From: Patescibacteria group bacterium
Lineage (GTDB): Bacteria > Patescibacteriota > Microgenomatia > Levybacterales > UBA12049
Reading direction: 5' to 3'
Assembly: GCA_038063195.1 (NCBI GenBank)
Contig: JBBTVO010000011.1
Coordinates: 1 to 62,050, forward strand
Length of the DNA stretch: 62,050 bases
A program made the position numbers and the translations under genes. This document shows positions 13,221 to 44,976 of this stretch, one piece after another; within the stretch, counting starts at the first letter, position 1; each line of letters opens with the position of its first letter. The notes beneath the pieces are model-generated. The model was given only the letters and a program-made list of their open reading frames with translations, searched no databases and was not told where the DNA came from.

Positions 13221-13235
13221 GCTATAGGACTATTT

Positions 13236-13365: not shown

Positions 13366-13371
13366 AGATTA

Positions 13372-14046: not shown

Positions 14047-14054
14047 ACTTGCGG

Positions 14055-14083: not shown

Positions 14084-14099
14084 GCTATAGGACTATTTG

Positions 14100-15464: not shown

Positions 15465-15549
15465 CGGAGGGTATGGGAGTCGAACCCATTCAGGACTTTC
15501 GCCCTGCAGGTTTAGCAAACCTGTCTCGTGACCGTCTGAGTCACCCTCC
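15465..15549 (-). tRNA. tRNA-Ser(GCU)
   Basis: Minus strand GGAGGGT...CAGGT-TTGCTAA-ACCTG, long variable arm, ATGGG-TTCGACT-CCCAT-ACCCTCC-G. Class II tRNA with anticodon GCT. No encoded CCA. Confidence 0.85.
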
Positions 15550-16536
15550 ATTCCACTTTAACAATCTTGGATTATGAGTCCCTACTACTTCTAGATATCT
15601 CTCGACTTCGTTTGTATTATACAGCCAAACCTTCTTATTTTCTACTTTATCTATTATTTTTGGAGTAAATCCTAATTCTGCTAGTGTATTTTTAACAAAT
15701 AAGAGCAAGGGAGCTGAGCGATTTGAAAATGAGATTTTTTTATATTTATACTCCTTCCCGCCTACTTTATATCTATGAAGAAAAACTCCCCCATCAGTAT
15801 CCATGAGTCCCCTCAAACAAGAGATTCTAAAACTCTTTTCTGCCAATATCCAAATTGGCACATCTACTTGTTGTTTTACTTTGTTGCCAATTTTTAATCC
15901 TATTTGCAAAAGATATCTTACCAGAGATGATCCATTGTAATATAAGGCTACAGCATTACAGTCTTTCTTCTGGAAATGTTTCGGTGGTTCACCGAATAAT
16001 TTTCTCGAAAAACTTGATACAAAATTTATATATTCCCTATCTGCTATAGAATTTAAAGTAACCGTACACTGTCCTAGTGTTAGCCCACCGTCTCCAAGCA
16101 TAATTCCTACATATTCTGCTAGCTCTTTACAGAAGGCGGGTTGATTATACGTCTTAACTCTTGGTATAATTCCGTTTCTTCGAAAATTAGCGAGCGCTTT
16201 TGCTCCACCTTTTCTTCTCCCCTCCTCTGTTGCGGGACTTCCATGTTTTTTAAAACGCTCAATTCCTCCAATTTTGCTTGCCGCCTGCTTAGTTTTTTGC
16301 CACCTCGATATTAAAGATGCTTTTTCCTCCGGTAGAAAAATCTTAAACATCTCACAGAAAAGTTCTGCAGCAAAGAGAGTCATTGTTAGTCTCTCTCTTT
16401 TCCAATCCCTGAAGCTACGCGGATGAATTTTTGCAAATTCTGCCAATCGATCTGTATTTAAACCGCTTACTCTATAAACCGTGTCTAGAAATTCTTTCTG
16501 TTTGTTCGGAAGAAATTTGATTCGTAAGTTTTCCAT
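15541..16536 (-). CDS. LAGLIDADG-family homing-endonuclease-like protein with N-terminal HTH-like region
   Basis: Two LAGLIDADG motifs (YVGIMLGDGGL and LRGLMDTDGGVF). Start set at the ATG 16536 because the longer ORF extension only translates the antisense of tRNA-Ser(UGA). The stop overlaps the tRNA-Ser(GCU) 5' end by 9 nt. Confidence 0.8.
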   Translation of the reverse strand: MENLRIKFLPNKQKEFLDTVYRVSGLNTDRLAEFAKIHPRSFRDWKRERLTMTLFAAELFCEMFKIFLPEEKASLISRWQKTKQAASKIGGIERFKKHGSPATEEGRRKGGAKALANFRRNGIIPRVKTYNQPAFCKELAEYVGIMLGDGGLTLGQCTVTLNSIADREYINFVSSFSRKLFGEPPKHFQKKDCNAVALYYNGSSLVRYLLQIGLKIGNKVKQQVDVPIWILAEKSFRISCLRGLMDTDGGVFLHRYKVGGKEYKYKKISFSNRSAPLLLFVKNTLAELGFTPKIIDKVENKKVWLYNTNEVERYLEVVGTHNPRLLKWNGG

Positions 16537-16594
16537 ACGGCTTTGCTTATCCTCTATTACTATACCATATGCTATACTAAGTTTGAAATATTCT

Positions 16595-16681
16595 GGAGAG
16601 GTCGCATAGCGGACTAGTGCAATGGTCTTGAAAACCATCGTGGCAGAAATGCTACCGTGGGTTCGAATCCCACCCTCTCCG
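16595..16681 (+). tRNA. tRNA-Ser(UGA)
   Basis: GGAGAGG-TC-GCAT...ATGGT-CTTGAAA-ACCAT, long variable arm, GTGGG-TTCGAAT-CCCAC-CCTCTCC-G. Anticodon TGA. Confidence 0.9.
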
Positions 16682-16928
16682 CACAAACCCTTCGGTTGCT
16701 CCAAGTCCCACCCACTATGTCAACTTGGCTTGATGTGGCTTGCCAATAAAGTTAGAGAAAACGGACAAATCCCAAATATAGCCTGTAATGTTGGAAATAG
16801 CCGAAAATACCCTAAAGGTATTTGCTCTTGGTTCTAAGCTTTTGTAGAAAAGAGCTATTATTAGCCATATTTCATGAGATATTTTCGTTCTAAGCCTGTT
16901 TTCTCTATTGAAAGTATTGCCCGAGGAT

Positions 16929-18254
16929 TTATTGAAGATTAAGCTGGCGATCAGAAAGATTAAATTTCGAAGTAACTCCTTTAAGAATCTTTACTCTCTC
17001 CTCCGGTGTTCCGAATTGAAGAACATGTAGAAGATATTCCTTAAGCATATCTTTTTGTGTCTGGGTATATATTCTGGGACTTTGATCTCCAGTATTATGA
17101 GGAGTAATCTCAGCTCTTGGAATATATTCATCTATTACTGTTGCTTTAAGATGCTGAAGTCTTTTTACTTCTACTTCAAACTCTTGCATTAGGTATGAAG
17201 TACTGAGTTTAATCTTTGGAAGGTGACTAATGAGTTGCTTAATTAGTTCCTGTTCTGTGATATATGGTTCTGGACAATCATACTTCCTTATTCTATTGCA
17301 GTGGTAATAAATGTGAGAATTTACAATATTTGCTTTAGTTCTTCTGTATTTAATCTCTGCTGTTACACTTCCACCACAACTTCCGCAGATACAGATCTTC
17401 TTGAAAGGAAAGAGTTGTTTATTCCATTGTCTGGGAGCAACTTGTAGTTGAATCTGTACCTTCTCAAAGAGTGGTTTGGTAATTAATGGTTCATATGTTC
17501 CCTTATACCACTTGTCTCCATATCGAAACTCACCGTAGTAAAATGGGTTTTCTAGTGCAACATATATCTTACTAAGTGCCATCTTGTATCCATTCTTTGT
17601 GGTAAAGGAAATATCATCAAGCCACTTCTTTATCATTCTTCCTGAAAACCCTTGATAAGCTACTTTATTAAATATTTGTTTAATAACAGGTGCACGTTCT
17701 GGATCTAGTTCTACAGTTGATATACGGTTCTCCTTAAGAACATTACGGTAGCCTATTGGAGCAACACCAGGTCTTATTCCTATTTCACATTTATTCCTTA
17801 GTCCTCTTTTTACATTTACTCCTCTGTTATCATTCTCAAGTTTTGCCTGAGAGCAGAGAATCATAAGTAGGAACTTTTCATTGGGGTTATCAGAGAACGA
17901 TTGAGAGTATGTTTTAATATGAGCAAGTTTTCCTTGATCCATTAAATCAACTATTCTTCCTAAGTCTCCTGCATTACGGGACAGTCTGTCTGGTGCCCAA
18001 GTGAGGATACTGTTATACCTTCCTTCTGTTACTCCAAGAAGAAGCTTATTAAACTCTGGTCTTTGTCCTGATTCTTTGGCTGAATGGCTTTCTGTAATAG
18101 TTTCAGTAATATTTAGCTTTTCTCTCTTGGCAAGAAGTTGCATCTCCTTCAGTTGTCCGTCAATACTCATCGCTTGTCTTTCATCTGACTCAGAAGACTT
18201 ACGGACATACAGACAGTAGGCGATATTCTGATCTAGTTGTATATGCTTTTTCAT
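16929..18254 (-). CDS. large serine recombinase
   Basis: 441 aa. Resolvase-type N-terminus (YLYVRKSSESDERQAMSIDGQ, PDRLSRN), a recombinase domain, and a Cys-rich zinc ribbon (CICGSCGG...YYHCN...DCP). Confidence 0.85.
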   Translation of the reverse strand: MKKHIQLDQNIAYCLYVRKSSESDERQAMSIDGQLKEMQLLAKREKLNITETITESHSAKESGQRPEFNKLLLGVTEGRYNSILTWAPDRLSRNAGDLGRIVDLMDQGKLAHIKTYSQSFSDNPNEKFLLMILCSQAKLENDNRGVNVKRGLRNKCEIGIRPGVAPIGYRNVLKENRISTVELDPERAPVIKQIFNKVAYQGFSGRMIKKWLDDISFTTKNGYKMALSKIYVALENPFYYGEFRYGDKWYKGTYEPLITKPLFEKVQIQLQVAPRQWNKQLFPFKKICICGSCGGSVTAEIKYRRTKANIVNSHIYYHCNRIRKYDCPEPYITEQELIKQLISHLPKIKLSTSYLMQEFEVEVKRLQHLKATVIDEYIPRAEITPHNTGDQSPRIYTQTQKDMLKEYLLHVLQFGTPEERVKILKGVTSKFNLSDRQLNLQ

Positions 18255-21306: not shown

Positions 21307-23454
21307 TTAAGATATCCATCCGCGTTTTCGATAATATGCCTGTCGTTTCTTAAATAGTCTATCAAAATATGTTACGTGTGGATCATGATAGTCGTAGACA
21401 ACTTGATTCTTTTTAGAACGTTGGATTCTCCCTATATATTGAGTAAGCTTCCCCTCAAAAGAAAATGGGTAGACCAAGAAAAGGCAATTAAGAGATGCCA
21501 GATCTATTCCCTCACCAAATAATTGTCCTGTCGCGACAAGTACTTGAAAATGACCAAGACTTATTTGTTCTAGTTTTAATTTTCTTTTAGATGCAGAATC
21601 TTCGCCCGTTAAAGTAATTACTTCGCACTTACTTTTAAGATAAAGATTTAGGACTTCTACGTGTTCTTTTCGTTCCGTTAAGACAAGAACTTTCCTACCA
21701 TCCTGTATTTGTTTCAGGACATCATCAATAATCATCTGATTTCTCGCACTGTCATAGATAAGTATTTTTGATAAAACCTCAAATGTGTCAGTCTTATAAT
21801 CAAATGGGGCTTCGAGTGAAGTTTTCTTTATATTAAGTAAAACGTCCTGATCACTTGACGGTGAGTTTTTCAGATCCGGATTTATTTCTACAAGTATATC
21901 ACCAATGTAAAAATAAATAAGTTTTTCATCGTTGTATTTTCTTTTTGGTGTTGCTGTAAGACCATACAAATAATATGGGTTGAATTGGACAATCAATTCC
22001 CTAAATGTTTTTGCGGGAATATGATGACATTCATCAACAATTACAATTCCGAATTGATCAGCAAAACTATCAATGTCTTTTATTTTGGTAAGACTTTGCA
22101 TCATGGCAACAGTGATTTGTTTTCCAATTATTTTTTTACTTCCTGAGATTTGGCCGATTTGGTTTTTTGGGATACCTAAAAATGATTGAATTCGCTCAAT
22201 CCACTGATCAAGTAATTGTTTTCTGTGGACAAGAATTAACGCAGGTTGAGACTTTTGGACAATAAGCTCAAGGCCAATAATAGTTTTTCCTGAGCCGGAC
22301 GGCGCAACGATAACTCCAGAATCATTTCCTTCTATTTCCTTGAGTGCTTGTTTTTGATAATCATAAAGAGTAATCTTCGAATTAAATTCACTTTGAGATT
22401 TACGTTTTCGCTCGTCAACTATTACGTGGGGTATTTCGTGTTCCCGGCAAAAATCTATGAGCTGAGGAAGGAATCCTCTTGGGATATGAACAAATTCCGT
22501 TGTTTCTGTAATTAATTTAAAATACTTTTCGGTTTGGTAGGTACTTACACCAATACGTTTTTTAATTAAATATTCGGTATTTAAAAAATTAAGATTCTCT
22601 CGTAAATATTTGACTAAAAGAGGTGTAAGGCTTGATTTTTGTATCCCGATATGATTCTTCAGGACGATATTTAATGCGTTTGATTTTATCTTCGATTTAG
22701 ATTTCGTTTTCTCAATTTGAGTGAAGTTTGACTCGACCAGCGAACTATAAAGTTCATCAAGTTGATTCTTGCTTAGTTTTTGAATTGTTCGTAAATATTC
22801 CCACTGATCCGGTATAATTTCGAACGTTTCGGGATTAAGAAAAACGGTGTTGCCTTTTTTATTTGATACTCCCTGAAAGGGAAGCGCAATTAAATTGCCA
22901 AAGCCCTGTCCGCTATGATAATCTTGATTTGGGAAAAGACGGTCAAAACCTACTTCCTTTTCAAACTCAGAAAGATTGAGAGCTTTTCTAATAAGTTCAA
23001 GCATGATGGTTCTTGATTTTTGCGCCAGATATTTTTCCTCAAAGAAAACCCATATATGAGAACCGATTCCCGACCGAGAGCGTTCGATGCATGCCGGAAT
23101 TTTATATTCCTTACAAACTTTAAGAAAATTAACGCTTTCCTTTTGCCAGTTTTCTTTATCAAAATCTGCAGCGATAAAATGAGAAGTATTATCGACAAGT
23201 AGTGGATAAATACCTATCGTTTGCACGCCAGCCAAATGTGACTGGATTACTTCTGGAGTAAGCATAAGTGGTTTTTTGTTAGGAAAGTCACTAAATTTTC
23301 CGCCCCTTGCTTTAAAAGCCATGAATTCTTTCCAGTCGAGTTCGTATGCAGGCGAATATCCGTTTTTACCGTTTTTCTCCCAGCGCCTAGCATACACATC
23401 GGTTCTACCTTTGAAAAGAGACATAAAAAGATTAATTTGTTTTGTATCAACCAT
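21307..23454 (-). CDS. archaeo-eukaryotic primase (PrimPol)-like domain fused to an SF2 DEAD/DEAH (ResIII-type) helicase
   Basis: N-terminal AEP motifs FIAADFDKENW (DxD) and SRSGIGSHIWVFF (sGxGxH). C-terminal helicase motifs APSGSGKT (I), VIVDECHH (II), LTATP (III) and QYIGRIQR (VI). Confidence 0.85.
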   Translation of the reverse strand: MVDTKQINLFMSLFKGRTDVYARRWEKNGKNGYSPAYELDWKEFMAFKARGGKFSDFPNKKPLMLTPEVIQSHLAGVQTIGIYPLLVDNTSHFIAADFDKENWQKESVNFLKVCKEYKIPACIERSRSGIGSHIWVFFEEKYLAQKSRTIMLELIRKALNLSEFEKEVGFDRLFPNQDYHSGQGFGNLIALPFQGVSNKKGNTVFLNPETFEIIPDQWEYLRTIQKLSKNQLDELYSSLVESNFTQIEKTKSKSKIKSNALNIVLKNHIGIQKSSLTPLLVKYLRENLNFLNTEYLIKKRIGVSTYQTEKYFKLITETTEFVHIPRGFLPQLIDFCREHEIPHVIVDERKRKSQSEFNSKITLYDYQKQALKEIEGNDSGVIVAPSGSGKTIIGLELIVQKSQPALILVHRKQLLDQWIERIQSFLGIPKNQIGQISGSKKIIGKQITVAMMQSLTKIKDIDSFADQFGIVIVDECHHIPAKTFRELIVQFNPYYLYGLTATPKRKYNDEKLIYFYIGDILVEINPDLKNSPSSDQDVLLNIKKTSLEAPFDYKTDTFEVLSKILIYDSARNQMIIDDVLKQIQDGRKVLVLTERKEHVEVLNLYLKSKCEVITLTGEDSASKRKLKLEQISLGHFQVLVATGQLFGEGIDLASLNCLFLVYPFSFEGKLTQYIGRIQRSKKNQVVYDYHDPHVTYFDRLFKKRQAYYRKRGWIS

Positions 23455-23528
23455 AATAATAGGCTAGATTATAGCATGCACGGTTACGCTTTTGAAGTTT
23501 AGGGGATAAGTTAGGAAAATGGTTCTGA

Positions 23529-24542
23529 TTATTCTGATAATGTTTGCTTCAACTCGGCGATTGTTAAGCGTTTCTCTTTTTGTAATTTCCTGATTCTTTT
23601 TATCCTCTCAATTGCACTAGGTGAATAAAGTTGATATCCTCCCTCTGTATAATTTTCTACTTTCAGGAGTCCTTCTTTTGTCCAATAGCGAAGAGTATGA
23701 ATTGTCTCCTTGGTTTCTTTGGCAAGCTCACCAATCTTCAGAAGATTGGCCTTGGGTTTAGTAGTAAATTCTTTTAGAACCGATTTCTTGTTTTCTAAGG
23801 CATTAAGGTATATATCAAGAGATCTATCAACAGCAGTATAGATTAATTCATAAAATGGCTGTAGCGAATGTTCGCGTCGTTCAATTTCAAATGCGCGAAG
23901 ATAAATCGTTCTATCCTCATTTCGAATAATTGCCATTGGGTAGCCATTCAATAGCAGGATTAAATTCATAAGCAACCTGGTAGTTCTACCGTTCCCGTCA
24001 ATAAACGGATGAATGCCTACGAATTTGAAATGAGCATCAGCTGCAATTTTTACCGGATGCACTTCTTGCTGAGCGGAAAGCCACTCAATAAATTCATTCA
24101 TAGCGTAAGGAATTGCGTGTGGTCTTGGAAATTCGGCATCAGAGCCACGAATAAAAACCTCTGTTTGTCTATATTTTCCGGCCCAATAGTTATTGATGCC
24201 CGTTAAAATAATTTTGTGAATCTCCAAAATGTCTTTCTCTGTAATGAACTGGTGTCCTTTTCGTTCTTTTGCCAGTTGTTTTATAAACTCAACAGCTTTT
24301 GCATGATTAATTGCCTCTAATTGATCTTTTAATGGTTTTCCGCTTATAACCGCTGAAACCCCCTTTTCTATCACTTCTGCTGTTTCGATTCGCGTTAGAG
24401 TATTCCCTTCAATAGCATTGGAAGAGTAAGTAATCTCAACCTTAAGCCACTCTTCAAGATTTTTTATTAATTCCTCAGGAAGTGGTTTATATGAATCAAG
24501 TTTTTGTTTTTTCTCTGTAAGTTTAGAAAGTAAAAGGTCCAT
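23529..24542 (-). CDS. Fic-family AMPylase-type protein with N-terminal autoinhibitory motif and C-terminal MerR-type HTH
   Basis: Fic motif HPFIDGNGRTTR. Inhibitory helix motif SNAIEG, which fits (S/T)xxxE(G/N). C-terminal LKIGELAKETKETIHTLRYWTKEGLL...YQLYSPSAIERIKRIRKLQ resembles a MerR N-terminal HTH. Confidence 0.85.
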   Translation of the reverse strand: MDLLLSKLTEKKQKLDSYKPLPEELIKNLEEWLKVEITYSSNAIEGNTLTRIETAEVIEKGVSAVISGKPLKDQLEAINHAKAVEFIKQLAKERKGHQFITEKDILEIHKIILTGINNYWAGKYRQTEVFIRGSDAEFPRPHAIPYAMNEFIEWLSAQQEVHPVKIAADAHFKFVGIHPFIDGNGRTTRLLMNLILLLNGYPMAIIRNEDRTIYLRAFEIERREHSLQPFYELIYTAVDRSLDIYLNALENKKSVLKEFTTKPKANLLKIGELAKETKETIHTLRYWTKEGLLKVENYTEGGYQLYSPSAIERIKRIRKLQKEKRLTIAELKQTLSE

Positions 24543-25402: not shown

Positions 25403-25496
25403 ACCTAAAAAAGGTAAAATGTGAATCAGGGTATAGTTACTAGCGTATAGCGTCCAGTTAACTATTTCCTAAACGCTATTTTCTAAACGCTGGACT

Positions 25497-25572
25497 GCGC
25501 TTGTAGCTCAAAGGATAGAGCATTGGATTGCGGATCCAAAGGTTGGTGGTTCGATTCCACTCAGGCGCGCCA
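25497..25572 (+). tRNA. tRNA-Arg(GCG), CCA encoded
   Basis: GCGCTTG-TA-GCTC...TTGGA-TTGCGGA-TCCAA...GGTGG-TTCGATT-CCACT-CAGGCGC-G-CCA. Anticodon GCG. Confidence 0.8.
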
Positions 25573-25659
25573 GGAGAGGTCGCATAGCGGACTAGTGCGG
25601 CGGTTTCGAAAACCGCTGTTGCCGAAAGGTAACCGTGAGTTCGAATCTCACCCTCTCCG
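25573..25659 (+). tRNA. tRNA-Ser(CGA)
   Basis: The 5' 26 nt are identical to tRNA-Ser(UGA). Anticodon arm GCGGT-TTCGAAA-ACCGC, long variable arm, GTGAG-TTCGAAT-CTCAC-CCTCTCC-G. Confidence 0.9.
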
Positions 25660-25660
25660 C

Positions 25661-26098
25661 ATGAAATTTGAATTCTCAGCAGGCGGTGTTGTTTTTCGAA
25701 AAGCCCATTCGGCAAGCTCAGGGCAAGAAGAAATTTTTATTTTGGTTGCTCAGCATTCCCAGCATCATGGTTGGGTTTTTCCAAAAGGATGGATTGAAAA
25801 GAGTGAAACCAAAGAAGATGCTGCTCTAAGGGAAGTTAAGGAAGAGACAGGCATCATCGGGAGGATCACAAAACCTTTACAACCCGTCACATACTGGTAT
25901 GATCTTGAACGAGTAAAAATAAAAAAGACTGTTTATTATTTTCTGATGGAATTTGCCGGAGGAAATACTGAGGAACATGACGATGAGATGGAAAACGTAG
26001 AATGGATGCCCAAAAAAGAAGTTTTGGAAAAATTAACATATAAATCAGATAAGGAGGTTTGGGTTCAGGCAGAAAGAATATTAGCAACTAGCCACTAG
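25661..26098 (+). CDS. NUDIX hydrolase
   Basis: Nudix box GWVFPKGWIEKSETKEDAALREVKEETG. The ATG at 25661 is used because the upstream ORF extension only translates the tRNA genes. Confidence 0.85.
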   Translation: MKFEFSAGGVVFRKAHSASSGQEEIFILVAQHSQHHGWVFPKGWIEKSETKEDAALREVKEETGIIGRITKPLQPVTYWYDLERVKIKKTVYYFLMEFAGGNTEEHDDEMENVEWMPKKEVLEKLTYKSDKEVWVQAERILATSH

Positions 26099-26110
26099 TT
26101 ACTAGTCGCT
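26081..26110. repeat. CTAG-rich repeat (contains ACTAGCCACTAG)
   Basis: ttagcaactagccactagttactagtcgct. Supplies the last codons and stop of the NUDIX gene. Inverted copy at 26933-26962. Confidence 0.8.
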
Positions 26111-26120
26111 GTTTTACTTG

Positions 26121-26207
26121 CGGTGGGACCGGGATTCGAACCCGGGATAATCTTACGACCATACACGCTTTCCAAGCGTGCTCCTTAAACCACTCGGACA
26201 CCCCACC
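26121..26207 (-). tRNA. tRNA-Ser(GGA)
   Basis: Minus strand GGTGGGG...CACGC-TTGGAAA-GCGTG, long variable arm, CCGGG-TTCGAAT-CCCGG-TCCCACC-G. Confidence 0.85.
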
Positions 26208-26218
26208 CGTTTCCCGAT

Positions 26219-26593
26219 TTAAATTACTTTAATATCGTATTTTTTGATTTTCCTATCGTCTGTAAGAAGCGTAAGCCCTTCGGCTTTTGCCTGAGCAATA
26301 AGCATTCTGTCAAACGGATCATTGTGATAAATAGGAAGTTTTCCTAAATTTAGAACATGAGAAAGATTTATGGATAATAATTCAAAACCAGAAAAAGACA
26401 CCATTTCCGTTATTGTAGTTTTTAAAGGTAACTTTCCTGCAGTATTTTTAATGCTTATTTCCCAAAGAGTAGCAATGCTGACATAGATATGGCTATTTGG
26501 ATCTTTTAATATTTTCTGCGTTGACTTGTTGAGCTTCTTATCTTCGCTTAACCACCAAATAAAAATATGAGTATCTACCAGATAACTTTCCAT
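26219..26593 (-). CDS. vapC: type II toxin VapC (PIN domain)
   Basis: 124 aa. YLVDTHIFIWW N-terminus and the spacing of acidic residues are typical of PIN toxins. Follows the antitoxin gene. Confidence 0.8.
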   Translation of the reverse strand: MESYLVDTHIFIWWLSEDKKLNKSTQKILKDPNSHIYVSIATLWEISIKNTAGKLPLKTTITEMVSFSGFELLSINLSHVLNLGKLPIYHNDPFDRMLIAQAKAEGLTLLTDDRKIKKYDIKVI

Positions 26594-26601
26594 ATCTTAG
26601 G

Positions 26602-26835
26602 TTATTTACCATAAAACATTTTGTTTATTTCGGGATCTTCGTCTGTAAAGTTATCCGGCATAAAAATTTTCCCCTTCAAAAGCCCTGGCTTGCGGGGCTT
26701 TAATGGCTTCTTGTAGCCGATCAATTTCGCGACAGGTTTCCCTGCCTTTGCAATTATTACATTCTCGCCAGCAGCCACCTGCTCAATGAGTTTTGACAGA
26801 TTTGTTTTTGCCTGATGAATATTTATTATCTGCAT
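26602..26835 (-). CDS. Phd/YefM-type antitoxin
   Basis: 77 aa. MQIINIHQAKTNLSKLIEQVAAGENVIIAKAGKPVAKL is typical of the prevent-host-death family. Confidence 0.8.
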   Translation of the reverse strand: MQIINIHQAKTNLSKLIEQVAAGENVIIAKAGKPVAKLIGYKKPLKPRKPGLLKGKIFMPDNFTDEDPEINKMFYGK

Positions 26836-26932
26836 AAATTATTTAATTAGCTAACTTAGCTAAGTATAATAAAAAACTTATTTTATGTCAACATTGCCGA
26901 TCAAAAAATTAAAAAATACGACATTTCAACAA

Positions 26933-26962
26933 TCTAGCTAACTAATCGCTAGTGGCTAGTCT
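26933..26962. repeat. CTAG-rich repeat, inverted copy (contains CTAGTGGCTAGT)
   Basis: tctagctaactaatcgctagtggctagtct. The 14-mer tcgctagtggctagt recurs at 32197-32210. Confidence 0.8.
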
Positions 26963-27009
26963 CTAAATTCCTTGACAAGGTCTTGAAAATATATCAGACT
27001 AAGGTAGGA

Positions 27010-28706: not shown

Positions 28707-31688
28707 TTATTTTCTACCAGCAGCTCCCTTTGCTCCTGATATTTCATACGCCTCTGAGAATAGAGCTGTAAGTAAAAAGATAAAGAAAGACATTCCTCTT
28801 CTGGCTGACTGTGGAAGAAGCCCAAGCTGAAGTTTTTTCTCAAGTCCTTTCCAGAGCGTCGGATCGCCATTCATTAGAGTGTTTATTTCATCCGCCTTTG
28901 CTCTTGCAGTATCGCGGCTTATAGGCGTTGCTTGTGGACCAAAAATTCTTTCAATTTTTGATATAGGTCTTCTGAATATTCCTTTTGATATACCCAGGCT
29001 GTCTGACATTAGATCCTGAAGAGAAGCTATAAGAAATGTGCCTCTGGTGAACCTTATACACTTTGCTCTCCCAGGTTCTCCATTATACTGGCTTACTGCA
29101 TCACCAAAAGCTCTTGCTGCTTTGTCATTTTCCTCATCGTGCTCGACATTCTTCATAAATCCAACAAGACTCTGTCCTGCTTTCATTCCGTTTGCGGTAT
29201 CATTCCAGATTCTTACATAGGCATCTCCGCCCTTATCTGTCCCAAACATCTTTGAAAGCGGCACTATTCCTCTTTCTTTTTCCTCATCGCTTACCAACTC
29301 AAGCCTATCAAGCAATGCATCGTCAACGGTTAAAGTACGGTTATAAATATCCTCAAATTTAGTACTAGTCATAAGCTGATCAATCATTTTGTTATCCGTT
29401 ATATACTTTTGCATTGCTGCAAATATCCCTACTGCATCACTTACCGCTTCTTCACTACCCATTATCTTGAGAAAAGATGCTTTTTGTTCGTCAGTTAGAG
29501 TTGCTAAGTTAATTTGTTCAGGGGCCCACTTTTTCTTCCCAGCCGGGTTGCCTTCATCATCCAATACATCTATCTCTTTTCTAAAATATTCTTCCCTTAG
29601 CATTCTTATCGCCGCTCCGTATTTGTCTTTAAACTTGGTATATGCAGTGATCTTCCCCATATCAGGATGCTCTTCATCATTTTTGTTTATCAAACGGTTA
29701 TGTTCTTTTTCTTCGTCTGTAAGCCTCAGGTAGTCATCCACACCTTCAAGTTGTGCGTAAAGACCTTCCAGTTGGCCATTGTCTCTTTCTTTAAAAAGCC
29801 TTATTATTTCTTCCGGCCGATAGCCAGCTATTTTGTCCCATATTTGCGCCCTTGCTCTAACTCTTTCCCTACCTTCACCAATTCTAGGATCTTTAAGTCT
29901 TAAAAATAGCCCAAAATCCTGTGCATTTTCAAATCTGCTTTCTATTGACTTAAGTATTCCTTGTACCCTCCAGCTAGATGAGAAAAAGTCAGGAACAAGG
30001 AAAAGATCTCTAAAGAGCCTCGTCCCAAGCTCAATCTTATCCTCTCTGCTCATAGACCAGGTGCTTTTCCCTCTTGTTTTAAGATCTTCATCTGCCATGT
30101 CTATTTTCGTCTCATCTAAATACTTTCGTTCATCTTCAGTGTAGAGTCCGAATTTTGCTGTAAGAAGATCCTCAAGGTTATAGACATTAAGAGGCCCCCC
30201 CACAGCATCTGAAAAGTAAGCATCTGCGCCTTGCAAATGTTTTCCTCTTGCAGTAATAACTGCCTGACGCTGGGACGAAACGAAGACATCATAAGCTGTG
30301 CCTATTGCTCTTTTTATCTCTCCTTCCATCTCTGCCTGATTTTTTTCAGCGCTGAAGAAAATTCCAATCCCTCTTCCCGCCATATCTATCTGCTCTTTAA
30401 TTAGTTTATCCTGCAGCTTTGCTTGCATCTCAGGTGTTACATGGTTTCTCTCAGCCTTAAGTCTCTCGTTCTCAAGTAGCTCGTCAAATCTGTTAAACAT
30501 TGCCCCTACCTTCCCATCCTCAAAGCTCATACCTGTAAATAGTCCATGAACCTGAAGATTATAAGATTCCTGCTGTATTTGCTCTATGCTTCTATAACCT
30601 ATAGCTGATCGCATTTTTAATAAGTTAAGTCTGATTATTTGTAGTTTTTCAAATTCCTGTAAGCTTTTATTAAGCCTATCTGCTTCACCGGTATTACCTG
30701 TATCAGCTTCTACTGCCGCCTTTTCTTTAAGAATTCTCATAGCCTCACTTGCCTGTTGCAAAATACTGTTTACAATAGGTGAGTCAAATGCCTGTCCTTC
30801 GGCGGCGATACGGTATATAACGTCAAACTGACTATTCAACCAGGCTATTGGGTCTCTAGCGATAGCCTCTATTGCAGGCTGGCTTATGTAAAGACTGCTC
30901 GTTTCCCTTCTTCTCTCTTCCATGGCAGTTCTTTCATCAGCTCTAGTATTTGCTATCTTCTCATTTATTTTCTGCAATAGCATATCTCGATCAGCTTCTT
31001 GTCCTAGTGTAACTGTCATTGCTGCTACCTGATCGTGGATATCCGTGAGCCTATCTGAGGATACACCAAGACTTGCAAGATTATTATTGTATCGCTCGCC
31101 AATAGCCTGTATTCCTGCGTCTCCGATACCACTGATATCTATGGCGGACGGGCGTGGTCCTCCCGCAGCCATAGTCCCGGGGCCCATACTAAGCGGCTCT
31201 GGTTGTAAATGGCTGTTTGTTGCTCTCAGGATTAGTTTCCCAATATCCGCTCCTCTGTCTTGGAGCTCTGCTAACATTCCCCACCCTACCTGCTGGGCTT
31301 CAGAAGCAATACCTTCTCTCTCAAAACCTTCTGCATGTCCCATTGCTAGGCGTTGTCTCTCAGTAAGTAATTTTACGTAGGCGTCTTCAAGGTCAGCATC
31401 TGACCATTTATTAAGAGGGTTAATTTCTAACTTAGCTTTTAAATCTGCTGCGAATTCTTTAAGAATCGGGGTTTTTATATTCTCAAGGTCTGGTGATGCC
31501 CATTTTGGAGACTCGATAGGTGGCGTTTCCTGAATACTAGAACTTTTTATAGGTGGTCTCTCTGACTTACCTTGATCCATGAAAATATTTCCTCTTACAT
31601 CAAGTGTAGGAACAACCGGCGGGGTTGTCAAATCCGCCGAAGGCGAGACAGGCTTATTAAATTGTGCTCGAACTTCAAATTCTTTCAT
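28707..31688 (-). CDS. 993-aa tail-anchored protein of unknown function
   Basis: Long uninterrupted ORF. Pro-rich N-terminus, largely helical/charged body, single C-terminal TM helix (MSFFIFLLTALFSEAY). No NTPase or relaxase motifs seen. Confidence 0.7.
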   Translation of the reverse strand: MKEFEVRAQFNKPVSPSADLTTPPVVPTLDVRGNIFMDQGKSERPPIKSSSIQETPPIESPKWASPDLENIKTPILKEFAADLKAKLEINPLNKWSDADLEDAYVKLLTERQRLAMGHAEGFEREGIASEAQQVGWGMLAELQDRGADIGKLILRATNSHLQPEPLSMGPGTMAAGGPRPSAIDISGIGDAGIQAIGERYNNNLASLGVSSDRLTDIHDQVAAMTVTLGQEADRDMLLQKINEKIANTRADERTAMEERRRETSSLYISQPAIEAIARDPIAWLNSQFDVIYRIAAEGQAFDSPIVNSILQQASEAMRILKEKAAVEADTGNTGEADRLNKSLQEFEKLQIIRLNLLKMRSAIGYRSIEQIQQESYNLQVHGLFTGMSFEDGKVGAMFNRFDELLENERLKAERNHVTPEMQAKLQDKLIKEQIDMAGRGIGIFFSAEKNQAEMEGEIKRAIGTAYDVFVSSQRQAVITARGKHLQGADAYFSDAVGGPLNVYNLEDLLTAKFGLYTEDERKYLDETKIDMADEDLKTRGKSTWSMSREDKIELGTRLFRDLFLVPDFFSSSWRVQGILKSIESRFENAQDFGLFLRLKDPRIGEGRERVRARAQIWDKIAGYRPEEIIRLFKERDNGQLEGLYAQLEGVDDYLRLTDEEKEHNRLINKNDEEHPDMGKITAYTKFKDKYGAAIRMLREEYFRKEIDVLDDEGNPAGKKKWAPEQINLATLTDEQKASFLKIMGSEEAVSDAVGIFAAMQKYITDNKMIDQLMTSTKFEDIYNRTLTVDDALLDRLELVSDEEKERGIVPLSKMFGTDKGGDAYVRIWNDTANGMKAGQSLVGFMKNVEHDEENDKAARAFGDAVSQYNGEPGRAKCIRFTRGTFLIASLQDLMSDSLGISKGIFRRPISKIERIFGPQATPISRDTARAKADEINTLMNGDPTLWKGLEKKLQLGLLPQSARRGMSFFIFLLTALFSEAYEISGAKGAAGRK

Positions 31689-31772
31689 GCGCTGAGTGTA
31701 TAGGAAGAGCAGGCGGAGTACTTGACGTTTACATTACAGCTTCCTGACGATATACTTACAATAGAATTAAAC

Positions 31773-31817
31773 AGCAACTAGCAGGCTAGCAATTAGCCAC
31801 TAGTTATTAGGCACTAG
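31773..31817. repeat. CTAG-rich repeat upstream of a four-helix-bundle gene
   Basis: agcaactagcaggctagcaattagccactagttattaggcactag. Confidence 0.75.
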
Positions 31818-31821
31818 AATT

Positions 31822-32202
31822 ATGAAAATAACATCCTACAGAGAGCTGATTGTATGGCAGAAATCAATGGATTTAGCAACTTTAATATTTAACATAACTA
31901 AGTCTTTCCCTGCTTCTGAGCAGTATGGACTTACAAATCAAATAAGAAGGGCTTGTTTTTCAATCCCATCAAACATAGCAGAGGGATTTTGTAGAGGCGG
32001 TAGGCCAGAATTCAGACAATTCCTGCAAATCGCATTTGCATCCGGAGCAGAGCTTGAAACAGAACTGGAAATAGCTAAAAACATTGGAATATTACAAGAT
32101 AAAGATTATAAAATTTTAATTTCAAAGCTTGATGAAATCATGCGAATGCTGAATAAAATGATCAGAACTGTTAGAGATAATCAGAAACAATCTAGTCGCT
32201 AG
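31822..32202 (+). CDS. four-helix-bundle protein (23S rRNA intervening-sequence protein family)
   Basis: YRELIVWQKSMDLATLIF...FPASEQYGLTNQIRRACFSIPSNIAEG is the family signature. Confidence 0.85.
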   Translation: MKITSYRELIVWQKSMDLATLIFNITKSFPASEQYGLTNQIRRACFSIPSNIAEGFCRGGRPEFRQFLQIAFASGAELETELEIAKNIGILQDKDYKILISKLDEIMRMLNKMIRTVRDNQKQSSR

Positions 32203-32221
32203 TGGCTAGTTGCTAATCGCT
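32191..32221. repeat. CTAG-rich repeat downstream of the four-helix-bundle gene (inverted relative to 31773-31817)
   Basis: tctagtcgctagtggctagttgctaatcgct contains CTAGTGGCTAGT, the reverse complement of ACTAGCCACTAG. Confidence 0.8.
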
Positions 32222-33604
32222 ATGGAAGCTACACATTTCGAATCTCTATATCCAGCACAGTCCCGCTTTGACGAGATTGAGAAAATACTTAAATTTGCCA
32301 GAGAAGGGAAATCTTCTCAGCTTGTGGGGCTTCCCGGAGTAGGTAGGTCAAATACTCTTGGGCTTTTAAGCTACAACAAGAATATAAGAAAGAAACATTT
32401 GGGCGAAAATCAGAAATGGTTTCATTTTGTCTCCTGCGATTTTTCAGAAATCCGCAAGAAGCCTGTCTCTGATGCGATGAAATTTATATTCCTGCGCCTT
32501 GCTGATTCGCTTCGCGAAAGAAAAATATTAAAAAACGCAGAATCTGAATTCGCAGGAGAAGGCTCTTTTGAGCAGATTGATAAAATTTTTAAAGAATCTG
32601 CCGCGACAAATGACGAGATGGTTCTTTTTCAGGGTCTCAAGCGCGCAATAGACTTCCTTTGTATTGAAAAAGAGCTGACAATTGTATTCTTGTTCGACAG
32701 ATTTGAAGAATATATTCCAATGCTTACTCCCGAGTTTTTTGCAAACTTAAGGGTCTTGAGAAACCGCGCAAAGTACAGATTCTCAGTAGTATTTTCTCTT
32801 AATAGACCCCTTGAAGAACTTATCGAGCCCATACTTTTTGCCGATTTCTATGAATTTCTTGCAGATAATATTGTCTATCTTCCTATTTTGGATAAACCCG
32901 GCTTAGATTTCAGGATTTCTTATCTCGAAAAAGTGACAATGAAACAATTGAACAATGAAACAATTGAACAAGTCCTTTTACTAACCGGCGGACACGGGAA
33001 GCTTACAAGACTCAGTCTGGAAACAATATTAGCAACTAGCGACTGGCCACTAGCAACTAGTGAAAAACTGCAAGAGTTTCTGTTGGAGCAAAAAAGCGTA
33101 AAAGCAAGTCTATACGAGATATGGATATCGCTAATTCCGGAGGAACAATTACTGCTAGCGTCTAGAGAAAAGCGTTTAGCGTTTAGTTTTTCAGGTAGTT
33201 CCTACTTAGAGAAAATTGGACTTCTTAAAAATGAAGTAATAACTATTCCCCTTTTTGAAGAATTTATCTCAACCCTACTTCGTCAAGACTCCGGAAGGGC
33301 ACAGCAAATATCTTTTGATCAGAACACAAATGAGATCAAAATGGGCGAAACAGCTCTGTCTGATTCTTTAACTTCATCTGAATTCAAGCTTCTTAAATTT
33401 CTTCTTGATAATCCAGACAAACTAATCGAACGGGAAGAAATAATTAAGGCCGTATGGAAAGATGAAAAGACCACAGAAGGAGTCACAGACCAGGCACTTG
33501 ACCAGCTTATATTCCGCCTTCGCAAAAAAATTGAAGTTGATCCAAATAATCCTGTCCACCTCCAAACCTTAAAAGGCAAGGGGATAAGGTTTAGCAATCG
33601 CTAG
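32222..33604 (+). CDS. P-loop NTPase-like domain fused to an OmpR/PhoB-type winged-helix DNA-binding domain
   Basis: Walker-A-like GLPGVGRSN (Arg where Lys is expected), Walker-B-like IVFLFDRFEE. C-terminal LTSSEFKLLKFLLDNPDKLIEREEIIKAVW...ALDQLIFRLRKKIE...LQTLKGKGIRF matches trans_reg_C. The ATG at 32222 is preferred over the TTG at 32210. Confidence 0.75.
   Translation: MEATHFESLYPAQSRFDEIEKILKFAREGKSSQLVGLPGVGRSNTLGLLSYNKNIRKKHLGENQKWFHFVSCDFSEIRKKPVSDAMKFIFLRLADSLRERKILKNAESEFAGEGSFEQIDKIFKESAATNDEMVLFQGLKRAIDFLCIEKELTIVFLFDRFEEYIPMLTPEFFANLRVLRNRAKYRFSVVFSLNRPLEELIEPILFADFYEFLADNIVYLPILDKPGLDFRISYLEKVTMKQLNNETIEQVLLLTGGHGKLTRLSLETILATSDWPLATSEKLQEFLLEQKSVKASLYEIWISLIPEEQLLLASREKRLAFSFSGSSYLEKIGLLKNEVITIPLFEEFISTLLRQDSGRAQQISFDQNTNEIKMGETALSDSLTSSEFKLLKFLLDNPDKLIEREEIIKAVWKDEKTTEGVTDQALDQLIFRLRKKIEVDPNNPVHLQTLKGKGIRFSNR
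33029..33062. repeat. CTAG-rich repeat embedded in-frame in the NTPase-wHTH gene
   Basis: ttagcaactagcgactggccactagcaactagtg encodes LATSDWPLATS. Same word family as 26081-26110. Confidence 0.75.
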
Positions 33605-33714
33605 ACTTTTAAATTTTCAATTTTTAATTTTAATTGAAAACTTCAAATTTTAAATTTCAAATTAAATTCCGTCGCCTATTGACGTAGGACGACCAATAAG
33701 TATACGATAATTGT

Positions 33715-36149: not shown

Positions 36150-36153
36150 AGCA

Positions 36154-36350
36154 GATACTAGATACTAGTTGTTAGATATTAGCATTTAGTTAATAATTTC
36201 CAGACTATTATCTAGTATCTATTACCTATTAACTGTCAGGTTTTCACAGCCAGCTTCAATTCTCAGAAATTTTGACACATTTTGATTATCTTGCATTGAT
36301 ATTTTTCACATAGTTAAATAGATAATAGATACTAGTTACTAGATATTAGT
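36154..36350. repeat. TAG/ACTAG-rich repeat blocks upstream of the second four-helix-bundle gene
   Basis: gatactagatactagttgttagatattagc...tctagtatctattacc... and tagataatagatactagttactagatattagt. The terminal 14-mer tactagatattagt is inverted at 36722-36735. Confidence 0.75.
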
Positions 36351-36358: not shown

Positions 36359-36733
36359 ATGGCAAGTATTAAATCATACAAGGACTTAATTGTATGGCAA
36401 AAATCTATGATTTTAGTAAAAGAGGTTTTTGCTCTAACAGCAAGATTTCCAAAATCTGAACTATATGGAATTATTTCTCAAATCAGAAGATCCGCTATAA
36501 GTATTCCATCCAATATCGCCGAAGCGTTTGGCCGAAGATCTGTTAGGTCAACTGCTCAATTTTATTCAATTGCACTCGGCTCAGCGCTGGAGCTTGAAAC
36601 GCAGCTTCTGATATCACGTGACCTTAAGATGGCGGATTTGCAATATTTTAAACCAAGCGATGACTTATTATTGGAAGTTTGCAAAATGTTGAATTCAATG
36701 ACTGGGAAATTAAAGTTCTCAACTAATATCTAG
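36359..36733 (+). CDS. four-helix-bundle protein (23S rRNA intervening-sequence protein family)
   Basis: YKDLIVWQKSMILVKEVF...FPKSELYGIISQIRRSAISIPSNIAEA. Paralogue of 31822-32202. Confidence 0.85.
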   Translation: MASIKSYKDLIVWQKSMILVKEVFALTARFPKSELYGIISQIRRSAISIPSNIAEAFGRRSVRSTAQFYSIALGSALELETQLLISRDLKMADLQYFKPSDDLLLEVCKMLNSMTGKLKFSTNI

Positions 36734-36750
36734 TATCTAATTACTAATAA
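36722..36750. repeat. inverted copy of the ACTAGATATTAGT repeat, overlapping the stop of the four-helix-bundle gene
   Basis: actaatatctagtatctaattactaataa. Its reverse complement ends ...gatactagatattagt. Confidence 0.75.
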
Positions 36751-36756
36751 CTATTT

Positions 36757-42394: not shown

Positions 42395-43501
42395 TCAACC
42401 TTGAATCCTTATCGGCATTATTATGTGGAGATAGTTGGGCTCGCCTTCTATTTTAAAAACTCCTGAATTAAGAGGGCCGGACATTTCAAAGATTATTTTT
42501 TCTCCATCCGTATTTGAAAGAAACTCTAGAACATATCTTACGTTAAATGCAATTTCGTTTTCTTCCCCCTCCATAGTGGCATCGACATCAATAGTTGTCT
42601 CACCTACTGACGGCGCGGATGCTGAAACAACAATCTTATTTTTCCCAATAGATAATTTAATAATATTGGCAGTTTCTCTCGCAAAAACAGCACAGGTCTT
42701 AACAGCCGAAAGAAAGTCTTTCCTGTCTATCACAGCTTTTGTCGAATAATCCTGAGGAATAATCTTTTGATAGTTGGGAAATTCTGCTTCAATAAGTCTT
42801 CCCACCATAATAACATCCTCCTGCTCAAAAATAATCTGATTACTTTTGGGAGAGACGCGGACAGATACATCTCCGCCGTCTTTAAGCATTGCAAGTTCCC
42901 TTAATATTCTTGAAGGCACCAGGATTTTATCCTCGTCCCCGTCTCCTACGCCACCCTTTTTAAAGGATAATCTGTATCCGTCGGTTGCCACCATATAGAA
43001 ATCTCCCTTCCTGCTTTTTCCCCTGCCAAACAAGACACCTGAAAGAGCAGGTCTTCCAGTGTCCTGCGATGCTGAAAAAACAACTTCAGGGATTTCTTTT
43101 TCCAAAACTTCTTTGGTAAAAATCCCAATCTCTTCACCTTTTTCTTCGTAGATCTTAGGAAACTCGTCTGCCTTTATTGTCTGGAAAATTGTTCTTATCT
43201 TGTCTCCTTCAAAAATAAGATTGTTTTCTTCTGTTTTTAAAACTATCTTACCTTTATCAACGCTTGATAAAAGGTCATAGAATGTCTTAGCCGGTACTGT
43301 TACTGACCCCTCCTCTTCGATACTTGCGGGTACTTCTGCTTCTATTCCTATTTCAAGATCTGTAGCGCTTATTGTGAATTTACCTTTTTCTGCTTTGAAG
43401 AGAAAATTTAAAAGAATTGGAAGTTGAGATCTGCTTGAGACTGCATGGTTTACAATTGAAATTTTCTTATTAACATTTTCGCAGAGGAACGAGACCTTCA
43501 T
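42395..43501 (-). CDS. dnaN: DNA polymerase III beta sliding clamp
   Basis: 368 aa. Three-domain clamp pattern, N-terminus MKVSFLCENVNKKISIVNHAVSSRSQLPIL, directly downstream of dnaA. Confidence 0.9.
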   Translation of the reverse strand: MKVSFLCENVNKKISIVNHAVSSRSQLPILLNFLFKAEKGKFTISATDLEIGIEAEVPASIEEEGSVTVPAKTFYDLLSSVDKGKIVLKTEENNLIFEGDKIRTIFQTIKADEFPKIYEEKGEEIGIFTKEVLEKEIPEVVFSASQDTGRPALSGVLFGRGKSRKGDFYMVATDGYRLSFKKGGVGDGDEDKILVPSRILRELAMLKDGGDVSVRVSPKSNQIIFEQEDVIMVGRLIEAEFPNYQKIIPQDYSTKAVIDRKDFLSAVKTCAVFARETANIIKLSIGKNKIVVSASAPSVGETTIDVDATMEGEENEIAFNVRYVLEFLSNTDGEKIIFEMSGPLNSGVFKIEGEPNYLHIIMPIRIQG

Positions 43502-43635
43502 CTTGAATTACTTTCTATTAATTTGTAGTTGTAGTAGTTTATAGGGAAAAGCGGAAAAAAGCAAGCGTAAAGCCTTGTAGGAAATGTTGAAAACAAGTGT
43601 ATAAAAATAAGGATAAGTTGTGGATATCCCGGAAG

Positions 43636-44976
43636 TTAGGAAACTGTTGTGGATTTCGTAAGTTCTTTAATTTTATTTATTTCTCCTGATAAATTATTCT
43701 CATCAAGCATGCCTTCAATTTTACCAACACCATGCATTATCGTGGAGTGGTCCCTTCCGCCCAAAAGATTCCCAATTTCCATAAATGAAAGGCCAAGCTC
43801 ATTTCTTAAGATATACATTGCAATCTGCCTTGCTTTTACCAAAGACGCATCTCTTTTCCCGCTTTTTATCTGGGTTGGTTTAAGACCATAATAATTACAA
43901 AGAGTTTTGATAATCTCATCAGGATGAAAACGGCTCGCCTGCTTTGATGCTTCACTTCCCATAAGCCGATCAACGATGCTATCCATTGAAGATGTGCTTT
44001 TTTCCATCTCCGTCATGAGTCGTAATAAATTTCCCTCAAGGCTTCTTGTGTCAAAAATTTCCTCAGCTATTTTTTTTGCGATATCGATATTTAGCTCGAA
44101 ATTATATTTCTTGGCTTTTATAAGAAGTATTGCGGTCCTAAGTTCAAAATCAGGCGGTTCGATATCCACAGTAAGCCCTCCTGAAAAACGGGAAGACAAT
44201 CTTTTTTCGAGTTTGGAAATTTCTGTAGGAGGCCGGTCTGAAGAAAACACAATCTGCGATCCTCTGTCAATAAGAGTGTTAAATGTATGGAAAAGTTCCT
44301 CCTGAACTCTGTCTTTTCCTGCAATAAACTGAATATCATCTATTACGAGAAGATCCGCGCTTCTGAATTTTCTTTTCATCCGCGCGGTATCTCCTGATCT
44401 AATTGCCTCAACGACTTCATTTGTGAAATCTTCACTTGTCATGTAGACAGTTTTTTTATCGGGAGAATCATGATAAACCTGATTTGCTATAGCCTGCATG
44501 ATGTGAGTCTTCCCGACTCCTACGGGACCATATATAAAAAGCGGGTTATATGCATTTCCGATTTTCTTGGCAACAGTTTGAGCGCTTACGTATGCAAGCT
44601 GATTGCCTCCTGATACTGCAAAAGTTTCAAATGTATAATCTTTCCTGGCTCTCGGAAGATGTCCTATTGATGGCTTCTGGTAGCTTTCTTTAAAAAGAGG
44701 AGTGTTTTCGTGATTGGTGGTCTCAGGCGTTTTGGGAATGAAAATTATTTTTGCATTTTTCTTTGTTTGTTTATCTACCGCCTGTTTAATAACTTCATAA
44801 AACCTTTTTTCTAAAAGGTCTAGTATCATCGCAGAAGGAGCAGCAATGGTAACCACGTCGTTCTCAATTGAGAGCAGTTGAGTTTTTTTAAAGAGTGTTA
44901 AGAAATTTGCCTTTGAAATTTGAGTTTCAATCTCGTTTAATATTATTTTCCAAAGCTCACTTTCATTTTGTTTCAT
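43636..44976 (-). CDS. dnaA: chromosomal replication initiator DnaA
   Basis: 446 aa. Walker A [9 protein letters not shown], Walker B [9 protein letters not shown], C-terminal domain IV [35 protein letters not shown]. Confidence 0.95.
   Translation of the reverse strand: [446 protein letters not shown]

Follow-up and report, generated by a model that had tools for sequence, protein, structure and literature searches.

Genes of the PF05635 family enclosed by inverted arrays of seven-nucleotide repeats: a candidate intervening-sequence-type cassette in the leader of a secretion pilin operon

Intervening sequences (IVSs) that carry an open reading frame (ORF) are known from the rRNA genes of Coxiella burnetii and Leptospira, and have been reported in rRNA genes of the candidate phyla radiation (CPR) as well (PMC4990558; PMC11270868). 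In the Coxiella IVS, which lies in helix 45 of the 23S rRNA, three tandem heptamers (GACAGAT) precede the ORF for the protein S23p; strains differ in how many they have, and RNase III makes its 5′ cut at the first repeat (PMC4990558). Tandem heptamers have also been described as families of repeats: GGGAATC in Xanthomonas and GGGGA(C/T)T, of the short tandemly repeated repetitive (STRR) type, in Nostoc (PMC4692102), TAACTGA in Beggiatoaceae (PMC4679880), and TTTTGAA in Nostoc promoters (bioRxiv 10.1101/2022.06.06.494920). Here we describe a gene of the S23p family that stands between two inverted arrays of 7-nt repeats in contig JBBTVO010000011.1 (assembly GCA_038063195.1) of a Levybacteria-like Patescibacteria group bacterium. 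The stretch analyzed, positions 1 to 62,050 of this contig, is called the window, and the gene with its arrays is called cassette A.

We give about an even chance to the view that cassette A matches the ORF-bearing 23S rRNA intervening sequences, being located here in the 5′ leader of an operon for pilins of a type IV secretion system (T4SS). The cassette would be of the IVS type, with a PF05635 gene in the loop of a hairpin that has inverted 7-nt arrays as its arms, placed in an mRNA leader; the case for and against this description appears to us evenly poised. Its features and immediate neighbors are as follows.

31728-31756, plus strand: sigma-70-type promoter, TTTACA-N17-TATACT, 10/12 matches
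31773-31817, plus strand: left (upstream) array, TAG-containing 7-nt units AGCAACTAG CAGGCTAG CAATTAG CCACTAG TTATTAG GCACTAG; 5′ arm of the predicted closing stem
31822-32202, plus strand: cassette A gene, 126 amino acids, PF05635/TIGR02436 four-helix-bundle protein
32191-32221, plus strand: right (downstream) array, CTAGTCG CTAGTGG CTAGTTG CTAATCG CT; period 7, 4.4 copies by Tandem Repeats Finder; 3′ arm of the predicted stem
32222-33604, plus strand: downstream gene, with a P-loop N-terminus and a Trans_reg_C C-terminus; start codon in the base of the predicted stem
28707-31688, minus strand: neighboring gene, 993 amino acids, divergent from the Trans_reg_C gene

Protein A is a member of the PF05635/TIGR02436 family of 23S rRNA IVS proteins (S23p). 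It matches PF05635 (23S_rRNA_IVP) with an E value of 1e-37 and 129 bits against a curated cut-off of 33.8, and TIGR02436 with 125 bits against a cut-off of 24, in agreement with the initial annotation, which had read a four-helix-bundle gene of the 23S-IVS type from the sequence alone. The AlphaFold (AF2) model predicts four helices (predicted local distance difference test, pLDDT, 94). In Foldseek comparisons this model was most similar to XCC0516 (2GSC; template-modeling score 0.87-0.96, root-mean-square deviation 0.8 Å), followed by BT_0352 (2RLD) and, as a distant third, by the accessory protein Avd of diversity-generating retroelements (DGRs). A defense or HEPN-like function of the cassette proteins was considered and rejected, there being no match of five cassette proteins to PADLOC defense models at E up to 1 and no extra Pfam match at E up to 10.

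Both blocks flanking the gene are tandem 7-nt repeats, TAGNNNN upstream and CTAGNNG downstream, each with a period of 7 in Tandem Repeats Finder. The arms 31787-31818 and 32191-32222 are complementary at 78% over 32 nt, a perfect 10-mer pair is formed by AGCAACTAGC (31773-82) and GCTAGTTGCT (32205-14), and the right block includes the stop codon, TAG (32200-32202). The initial annotation had correctly quoted these sequences as imperfect inverted, CTAG-rich flanks with the stop codon in the right repeat, but it missed their tandem 7-nt nature, the extension of the right array to exactly the ATG (32222) of the next gene, the promoter, further arrays of this repeat type at 26077-26108 and 26934-26963, and a second PF05635 gene, that of cassette B. 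The number of units varies among relatives, which are designated here, like all loci compared, by L-numbers: the left array has two units more than that of the orthologue in L001, and the right array of the L002 orthologue has seven units. The promoter is conserved in L001 and L002, where it reads TATAAT. Since it is located at 31728-31756, the left array falls within the 5′ untranslated region of the operon.

The pattern is more than chance. CTAG is scarce in the window, with 104 occurrences against 198 ± 12 expected, and seven of these are found within the two blocks of cassette A. The flanks reach an inverted-repeat score of 14.5. None of 500 shuffles scored as high, their average being 6.8 and their best 11.5. 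When the 57 genes of the window were ranked by this score, the cassette B gene came first, at 21, and the cassette A gene second.

The placement of the cassette between two divergent genes of the T4SS cluster was confirmed, and the Trans_reg_C gene is followed on the plus strand by T4SS pilins, a PrgI-like gene and a TraG-like ATPase gene. Cassette A is thus situated between a promoter and a protein-coding gene, not in a 23S or 16S rRNA helix. Rfam detected no rRNA anywhere in the window and no Rfam family covering the flanks of the cassette. Folding of 31766-32230 was predicted to pair 31773-31811 with 32187-32230 in both the minimum free energy and the centroid structure (z -3.0). The predicted closing stem is about 35 bp long and contains both the stop codon of cassette A and the start codon of the next gene.

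If the IVS-type description is right, the two arrays would pair in the transcript to form this duplex of about 35 bp, closing off the ORF and burying the stop codon and the following start codon. By analogy with rRNA IVSs, the duplex might then be cut by RNase III; alternatively, ribosomes that finish translating the cassette ORF might open it. Either cutting or opening would render the insertion harmless to expression of the flanking host RNA. Because 7 cannot be divided by 3 and CTAG is palindromic, three array units would moreover supply stop codons in all frames of either strand, so that the cassette could safely abut or truncate coding regions.

The packaging is not peculiar to this locus. 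The family was sampled by a scan seeded only on a protein motif, taking the 80 loci that best matched protein A (42-55% identity); genes in this sample were called crudely, and taxon labels are the record titles. The flanks of 79 loci, from CPR, Bacteroidota, Proteobacteria, Nitrospirae, Planctomycetes, Acidobacteria and Firmicutes, were compared with those of 228 control ORFs from the same loci. The median inverted-repeat score was 13.5 compared to 7.0 for the controls (p 3e-29), and 61/79 loci exceeded the control 95th percentile. The best repeat period was 7 or 8 nt in 71/79 loci (7 in 45, 8 in 26). Array-hairpin packaging is therefore general in the A-like part of the PF05635 family sampled. 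The family as a whole is large: in one homologue search 7,998 of 8,000 scored candidates passed E ≤ 0.001. The initial annotation had proposed that such genes are carried on mobile cassettes, a proposal that would have suffered had other members lacked inverted flanks; comparable flanks are present in other members.

The sequences of the repeats vary from gene to gene, and the upstream array of a given gene is a far better fit to the downstream array of that gene than to the downstream arrays of other loci, even when only a single orthologous slot in Flavobacterium is considered (0.34 vs 0.20, 6/5000 permutations). The upstream and downstream arrays thus co-evolve. In 51/56 loci the coding strand is rich in G in the upstream array and rich in C in the downstream one (p 1e-10), a polarity that points to a constraint at the level of the transcript. 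The next gene is usually co-directional, its start lying a median of 37 nt past the stop codon. An example is seen in Xanthomonas (L091 and L094, 2420-2875), in which an XCC0516-type gene stands between accB and accC, inside an otherwise universal accB-accC operon. It is preceded by four copies of GGGAATC and followed by four copies of the complement, which extend to the ATG of accC. These flanks are the published 'G-quadruplex' repeats, in inverted orientation around a PF05635 gene whose product has a known structure (2GSC). A full-text search of the literature found no paper tying PF05635 genes in general to flanking repeat arrays; relative to the literature searched, the packaging rule across the sampled loci and its link to the published heptamer-repeat families are new.

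The history of the cassette can be followed in related genomes. Cassette A occupies a syntenic position between the same two flanking genes in at least four of them (L001/L088, L002-L005 and L086). Its identity is 89% in L001/L088, 82% in L002-L005 and 76% in L086, and the neighboring protein is 72-79% identical across these relatives. The ratio of non-synonymous to synonymous substitution rates (dN/dS) of the cassette A gene is 0.03-0.14, with synonymous sites saturated. Because of the synteny, the saturated synonymous sites and the low dN/dS, this copy is judged old and its protein constrained: it is fixed, vertically inherited and under purifying selection, which counts against mobility of this particular copy.

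In other slots of this gene cluster, relatives show that the unit has moved, been exchanged for another or degenerated into hairpins without an ORF. Just before the PrgI-like gene, the window and L001 have cassette B, L086 has an empty site, and L002 has a non-orthologous cassette gene, about 21% identical to A, with repeats of its own. L001 has an extra PF05635 cassette with CGTAA-type repeats between the regulator and the first pilin. Between two pilins a decay series is seen: L002 has a full PF05635 cassette with CAAAT-type repeats, L001 a miniature, L086 a bare 52-nt A-type hairpin (z -3.5), and the window nothing. The miniature in L001 (9638-9742) is a 105-nt version of cassette A at a different intergenic site; it retains both arrays, along with 15 nt from the beginning and ~25 nt from the end of the ORF, and its predicted fold has -32 kcal/mol (z -5.8). 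In L090 a gene 73% identical to that of cassette A is accompanied by arrays of the same type (GCAACTA/GCAATTA) in an unrelated context. Units that carry the ORF seem to be the complete form, from which the hairpins lacking it seem to derive. The initial annotation had inferred small non-autonomous mobile cassettes: movement, replacement and decay in relatives, in which gene and repeats act as a single unit, bear this out in part, while 'non-autonomous' is unsupported, and its statement that no mobility mechanism is established remains true.

The window contains further units of this kind. Cassette B shares the layout of cassette A, but with other, AT-rich 7-nt repeats.

36317-36349, plus strand: cassette B upstream array, AATAGAT/ACTAGTT units
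36359-36733, plus strand: cassette B gene, a second PF05635 protein of 124 amino acids, 43% identical to A
36723-36753, plus strand: cassette B downstream array, overlapping the stop codon and ending 3 nt before the ATG of the PrgI-like gene (36757)
36153-36234, plus strand: ORF-less hairpin, a miniature of cassette B with B-type arrays and the last ~12 nt of ORF B
26077-26108, plus strand: A-type array, ATTAGCAACTAGCCACTAGTTACTAGTCGCT, which gives the NUDIX gene its last codons and stop, and adjoins tRNA-Ser
26934-26963, plus strand: A-type array in the opposite sense, CTAGCTAACTAATCGCTAGTGGCTAGTCTC
33607-33663, plus strand: ORF-less TTTTAAA-type 7-nt array, in the slot that is a full PF05635 cassette in L001
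25428-25495, plus strand: ORF-less GCGTATA-type array pair, adjoining tRNA-Arg
56907-56997, plus strand: intergenic complementary CTAATT / ATTAGAA array pair, before ruvB

The miniature at 36153-36234 is predicted to fold with -25.9 kcal/mol (z -3.8), and its right part forms the repeat family D8 with the end of cassette B (36195-36234 vs 36713-36752, 78% identity). The hairpins predicted at 33603-33672 (z -1.0), at 25424-25498, where it is weak (z -1.2), and at 56900-57005 (z -1.6) are not significant. The two A-type arrays at 26077-26108 and 26934-26963 bracket tRNA-Ser, PIN and Phd. CTAG heptad-like clusters in the Trans_reg_C gene (33025-33060 and 33155-33165) resemble an A-type array and share AATATTAGCAACTAGC with 26077; they were rejected as an inserted array, as they encode LATSDWPLATS, which is conserved in orthologues.

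Arrays also occur widely without the gene. The A-type 17-mer CTAGTRGCTAGTTGCTA was found in >120 metagenome stretches, of which 80 loci with 85 sites were examined. Only two of the 85 sites adjoin an A-type gene, and most have none within ~700 nt. Approximately 31 have an inverted partner within 150 nt and are thus ORF-less hairpins; about 48 are solo, many of them directly past stop codons in GC-rich contigs.

Several observations on the arrays and their surroundings were made in passing. ORF-less A-type array hairpins adjoin tRNA genes in unrelated contigs (L110, L144, L175 and window 26077-26207). In L098, L103, L130, L146 and L173, heptads of the CTAGTAG/CTAGTTG type run over hundreds of nt, compared to 3-7 units at the cassettes. 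The orthologous site after the last small pilin gene has a 7-nt array in each of three genomes (L086 11650-11700, L002 11480-11550, window 36153-36234), of the ATTTACC, CAGTTGA or GATACTA type according to the genome, suggesting that the site is fixed while its arrays turn over rapidly. Toxin-antitoxin-like pairs (BrnT/CopG, DUF6922/AbiEii and PIN/Phd) are present in variable intergenic slots of the same T4SS cluster, at L002 10092-10620, L086 8752-9638 and window 26219-26835, and behave like the four-helix-bundle cassettes. The Phd-PIN module of the window (26077-26963) is inverted relative to that of L001/L088 (L088 1-840), and the L088 module is flanked by a direct repeat of ~22 nt (tagtatctgtttttgcttgaca). 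The NUDIX gene is likewise inverted relative to L086 (1750-2300). A-type arrays are located at the breakpoints of these inversions.

A number of results weigh against the IVS-type description. Cassette A itself is an exception to the polarity of the family, its G and C being reversed with respect to the norm. Stop codons in all three frames were found in 42/86 upstream arrays, leaving about half of the arrays without them; all-frame stops were therefore discarded as a universal property. Many Bacteroidota have an AT-rich, promoter-like spacer of 50-80 nt between the upstream array and the ATG, and thus both arms may not always share one transcript. The wobble test for selection at the RNA level showed no excess of G-U over A-C among pairing mismatches (91 vs 96); selection for pairing in the sense RNA is accordingly not demonstrated, and symmetry at the DNA level or a common origin could explain the complementarity. 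The strand polarity and the missing G-U excess pull in different directions, the former toward a transcript-level constraint and the latter giving no support to selection for sense-RNA pairing. Comparisons of filled and empty sites revealed no target-site duplication, the junctions having diverged so that they cannot be placed to the base. No mobility enzyme was found, and no transposase adjoins any copy seen. Finally, the Coxiella S23p ORF is apparently untranslated (PMC4990558), unlike the strongly constrained gene of cassette A.

A different interpretation, which we regard as possible but somewhat unlikely, is that the arrays are putative cognate binding sites of the encoded pentamer, on DNA, an RNA duplex or a single strand, in a TRAP-like or Avd-like manner. 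The protein would regulate the adjoining downstream gene, or would act as a recognition factor for copying of the unit and its ORF-less relatives; the ORF-bearing cassette would then be autonomous and the hairpins dependent on it. Each paralogue has its own type of repeat, and protein identity correlates with shared array 7-mers, across phyla too (rho 0.31), though this correlation could be plain co-inheritance. The concerted evolution of upstream and downstream arrays, the lack of G-U bias in the pairings and the abutment of the downstream array on the next start codon are consistent with binding sites. Avd, the nearest characterized structural relative, is a pentamer that binds RNA stem-loops in a flank-paired RNA. 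Xanthomonas has ~186 GGGAATC arrays (PMC4692102), and the same arrays flank the PF05635 gene there; a study of Nostoc postulates an unidentified protein partner for heptamer repeats (bioRxiv 10.1101/2022.06.06.494920). Many arrays resemble a constant core with a variable spacer, but a test for such protein-binding arrays gave only a weak overall excess (variance 0.52 vs 0.46), with 2/125 arrays individually significant. Most of the 85 A-type 17-mer sites, moreover, are without an A-type gene within ~700 nt, a distance that does not represent whole genomes.

A still wider proposal would join PF05635 genes and the short tandem heptamer or octamer repeats (STRR, GGGAATC, TAACTGA and CTAG heptads) as halves of one ubiquitous system. 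The gene-bearing hairpin would be the complete element, its encoded pentamer recognizing its own arrays on RNA or DNA, while thousands of ORF-less hairpins and solo arrays, along with the rRNA IVSs, would be its dependents or relics. We put this forward tentatively and think it less probable than the IVS-type description.

It is quite unlikely that the unit is a non-autonomous DNA transposon resembling MITEs (miniature inverted-repeat transposable elements), with terminal inverted repeats recognized by a transposase encoded elsewhere and the four-helix-bundle gene as passenger cargo. Imperfect, array-type terminal inverted repeats are indeed present, an internally deleted miniature occurs at a second site, presence and absence vary among relatives, and one type of repeat brackets the tRNA-PIN-Phd segment. 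The termini, however, differ completely among cassettes A, B, C and D of one gene cluster, so that even within one genome there is no single transposase site, which speaks against one trans-acting transposase. Instead of fixed termini the units have tandem arrays that vary in copy number, and they fill exactly the space from a stop codon or promoter to the next ATG, in the orientation of the gene that follows. One gene family, under purifying selection, makes up nearly all of the 'cargo', and the lack of visible target-site duplications and adjoining transposases noted above also tells against such a transposon.

It is very unlikely, and already disfavored, that the flanking repeats are ordinary slippage-prone heptamer microsatellites of intergenic DNA associated with the gene only incidentally: heptamer repeats are over-represented in bacteria (PMC4692102), unit number varies between orthologues and solo arrays are common, but control genes in the same loci are without such flanks, the upstream and downstream arrays are specifically complementary and polarized, and the arrays are kept across orthologues in which synonymous sites are saturated. 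That the cassette A gene encodes the Avd of a DGR is effectively refuted here, for although it has a weak match to the bAvd Pfam model (PF22296, 36.8 bits vs a cut-off of 40) and Avd structures are its third-best fold match, it scores 24.7 against a cut-off of 80 with the NCBIfam Avd equivalog NF033474, no reverse transcriptase domain was detected in the 29 ORFs scanned (the 20 larger window ORFs and neighbors) or in the syntenic loci, and there is neither a template/variable repeat pair nor a direct repeat ≥ 40 nt near the gene.

Other parts of the window deserve brief mention. Direct repeats at 10131-14102 (300 nt at 74%, 138 nt at 95%, and families of 46-71 nt) lie around a Bro-N gene and extend as far as the tmRNA gene (14097-14457, minus strand), possibly marking an integrated element that has attachment-like sequences in repeated form. 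An ORF with a LAGLIDADG domain (15541-16704, minus strand) overlaps a tRNA-Ser (16595-16682, plus strand), and a large serine recombinase (16929-18254) comes after this ORF; the tRNA-Ser at 25573-25660 is 83% identical to that at 16595-16682. At 21307-24542 a fusion of a TOTE-type archaeo-eukaryotic primase (AEP) and helicase (715 amino acids) adjoins a Fic-MerR fusion protein, in what looks like a small conflict-system island. The genes dnaN and dnaA are adjacent on the minus strand (42395-44976), and the window therefore probably spans the replication origin region.

If the link between gene and arrays is true, two puzzles become one testable question: the role of the four-helix-bundle 'IVS protein' family, which is very abundant and has no known role, and the function of the heptamer repeats that pepper the intergenic regions of cyanobacteria, Xanthomonas, Beggiatoa and others. 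The arrangement accB-XCC0516-accC of Xanthomonas offers a concrete, culturable test case, with a protein whose crystal structure is available. The arrays also account for unusual C-terminal tails and stop codons in the annotation of neighboring genes. These findings suggest a general class of cassettes, inserting wherever RNA tolerates a cut or an interruption, of which the rRNA IVSs are simply the most conspicuous members.

Comparison with the known systems may be summarized beginning with the most distant. Protein A has the same four-helix-bundle fold as Avd, in a family that forms pentamers, and the RNA whose stem-loops Avd binds has segments on either side of the template, upstream and downstream, that pair together; protein A differs from Avd in having only 12-16% identity, in scoring below the Avd model cut-off, and in its setting without reverse transcriptase or template/variable repeats. 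Like MITEs and the repetitive extragenic palindromic sequences and bacterial interspersed mosaic elements (REP/BIME), the units are short intergenic inverted-repeat elements present in many copies, with ORF-less miniatures derived from longer forms. Unlike these, they have no visible target-site duplication at their diverged junctions, no shared terminal sequence and no cognate transposase or REP-associated tyrosine transposase (RAYT) that could be seen; their ends are tandem arrays, and the full form carries a four-helix-bundle gene.

The published heptamer families are closer. They too consist of tandem 7-nt units, usually in 3-5 copies and variable in number, located in intergenic regions between co-directional genes and frequently in convergent pairs; the G-rich strand follows stop codons, the C-rich strand precedes start codons, and the repeats often end 1 nt before the start codon. 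The papers describing them do not mention PF05635, whereas here the arrays flank a PF05635 gene, as do the GGGAATC repeats around the XCC0516-type gene. The G-quadruplex explanation is inapplicable to CTAG-rich or AT-rich arrays like those of the window.

The closest resemblance is to the 23S rRNA IVS, which is seen as a selfish, horizontally acquired element (PMC4990558; PMC11270868). In both, inverted repeats surround an S23p (PF05635) ORF and make up a stem, here a predicted one, and as in Coxiella tandem heptamers of variable copy number are located just upstream of the ORF. In contrast to the rRNA IVS, cassette A is found in an mRNA leader or an intergenic spacer and points in the same direction as the following protein gene, and both of its arms are repeat arrays. 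Its protein is under strong purifying selection, while that of Coxiella is decaying.

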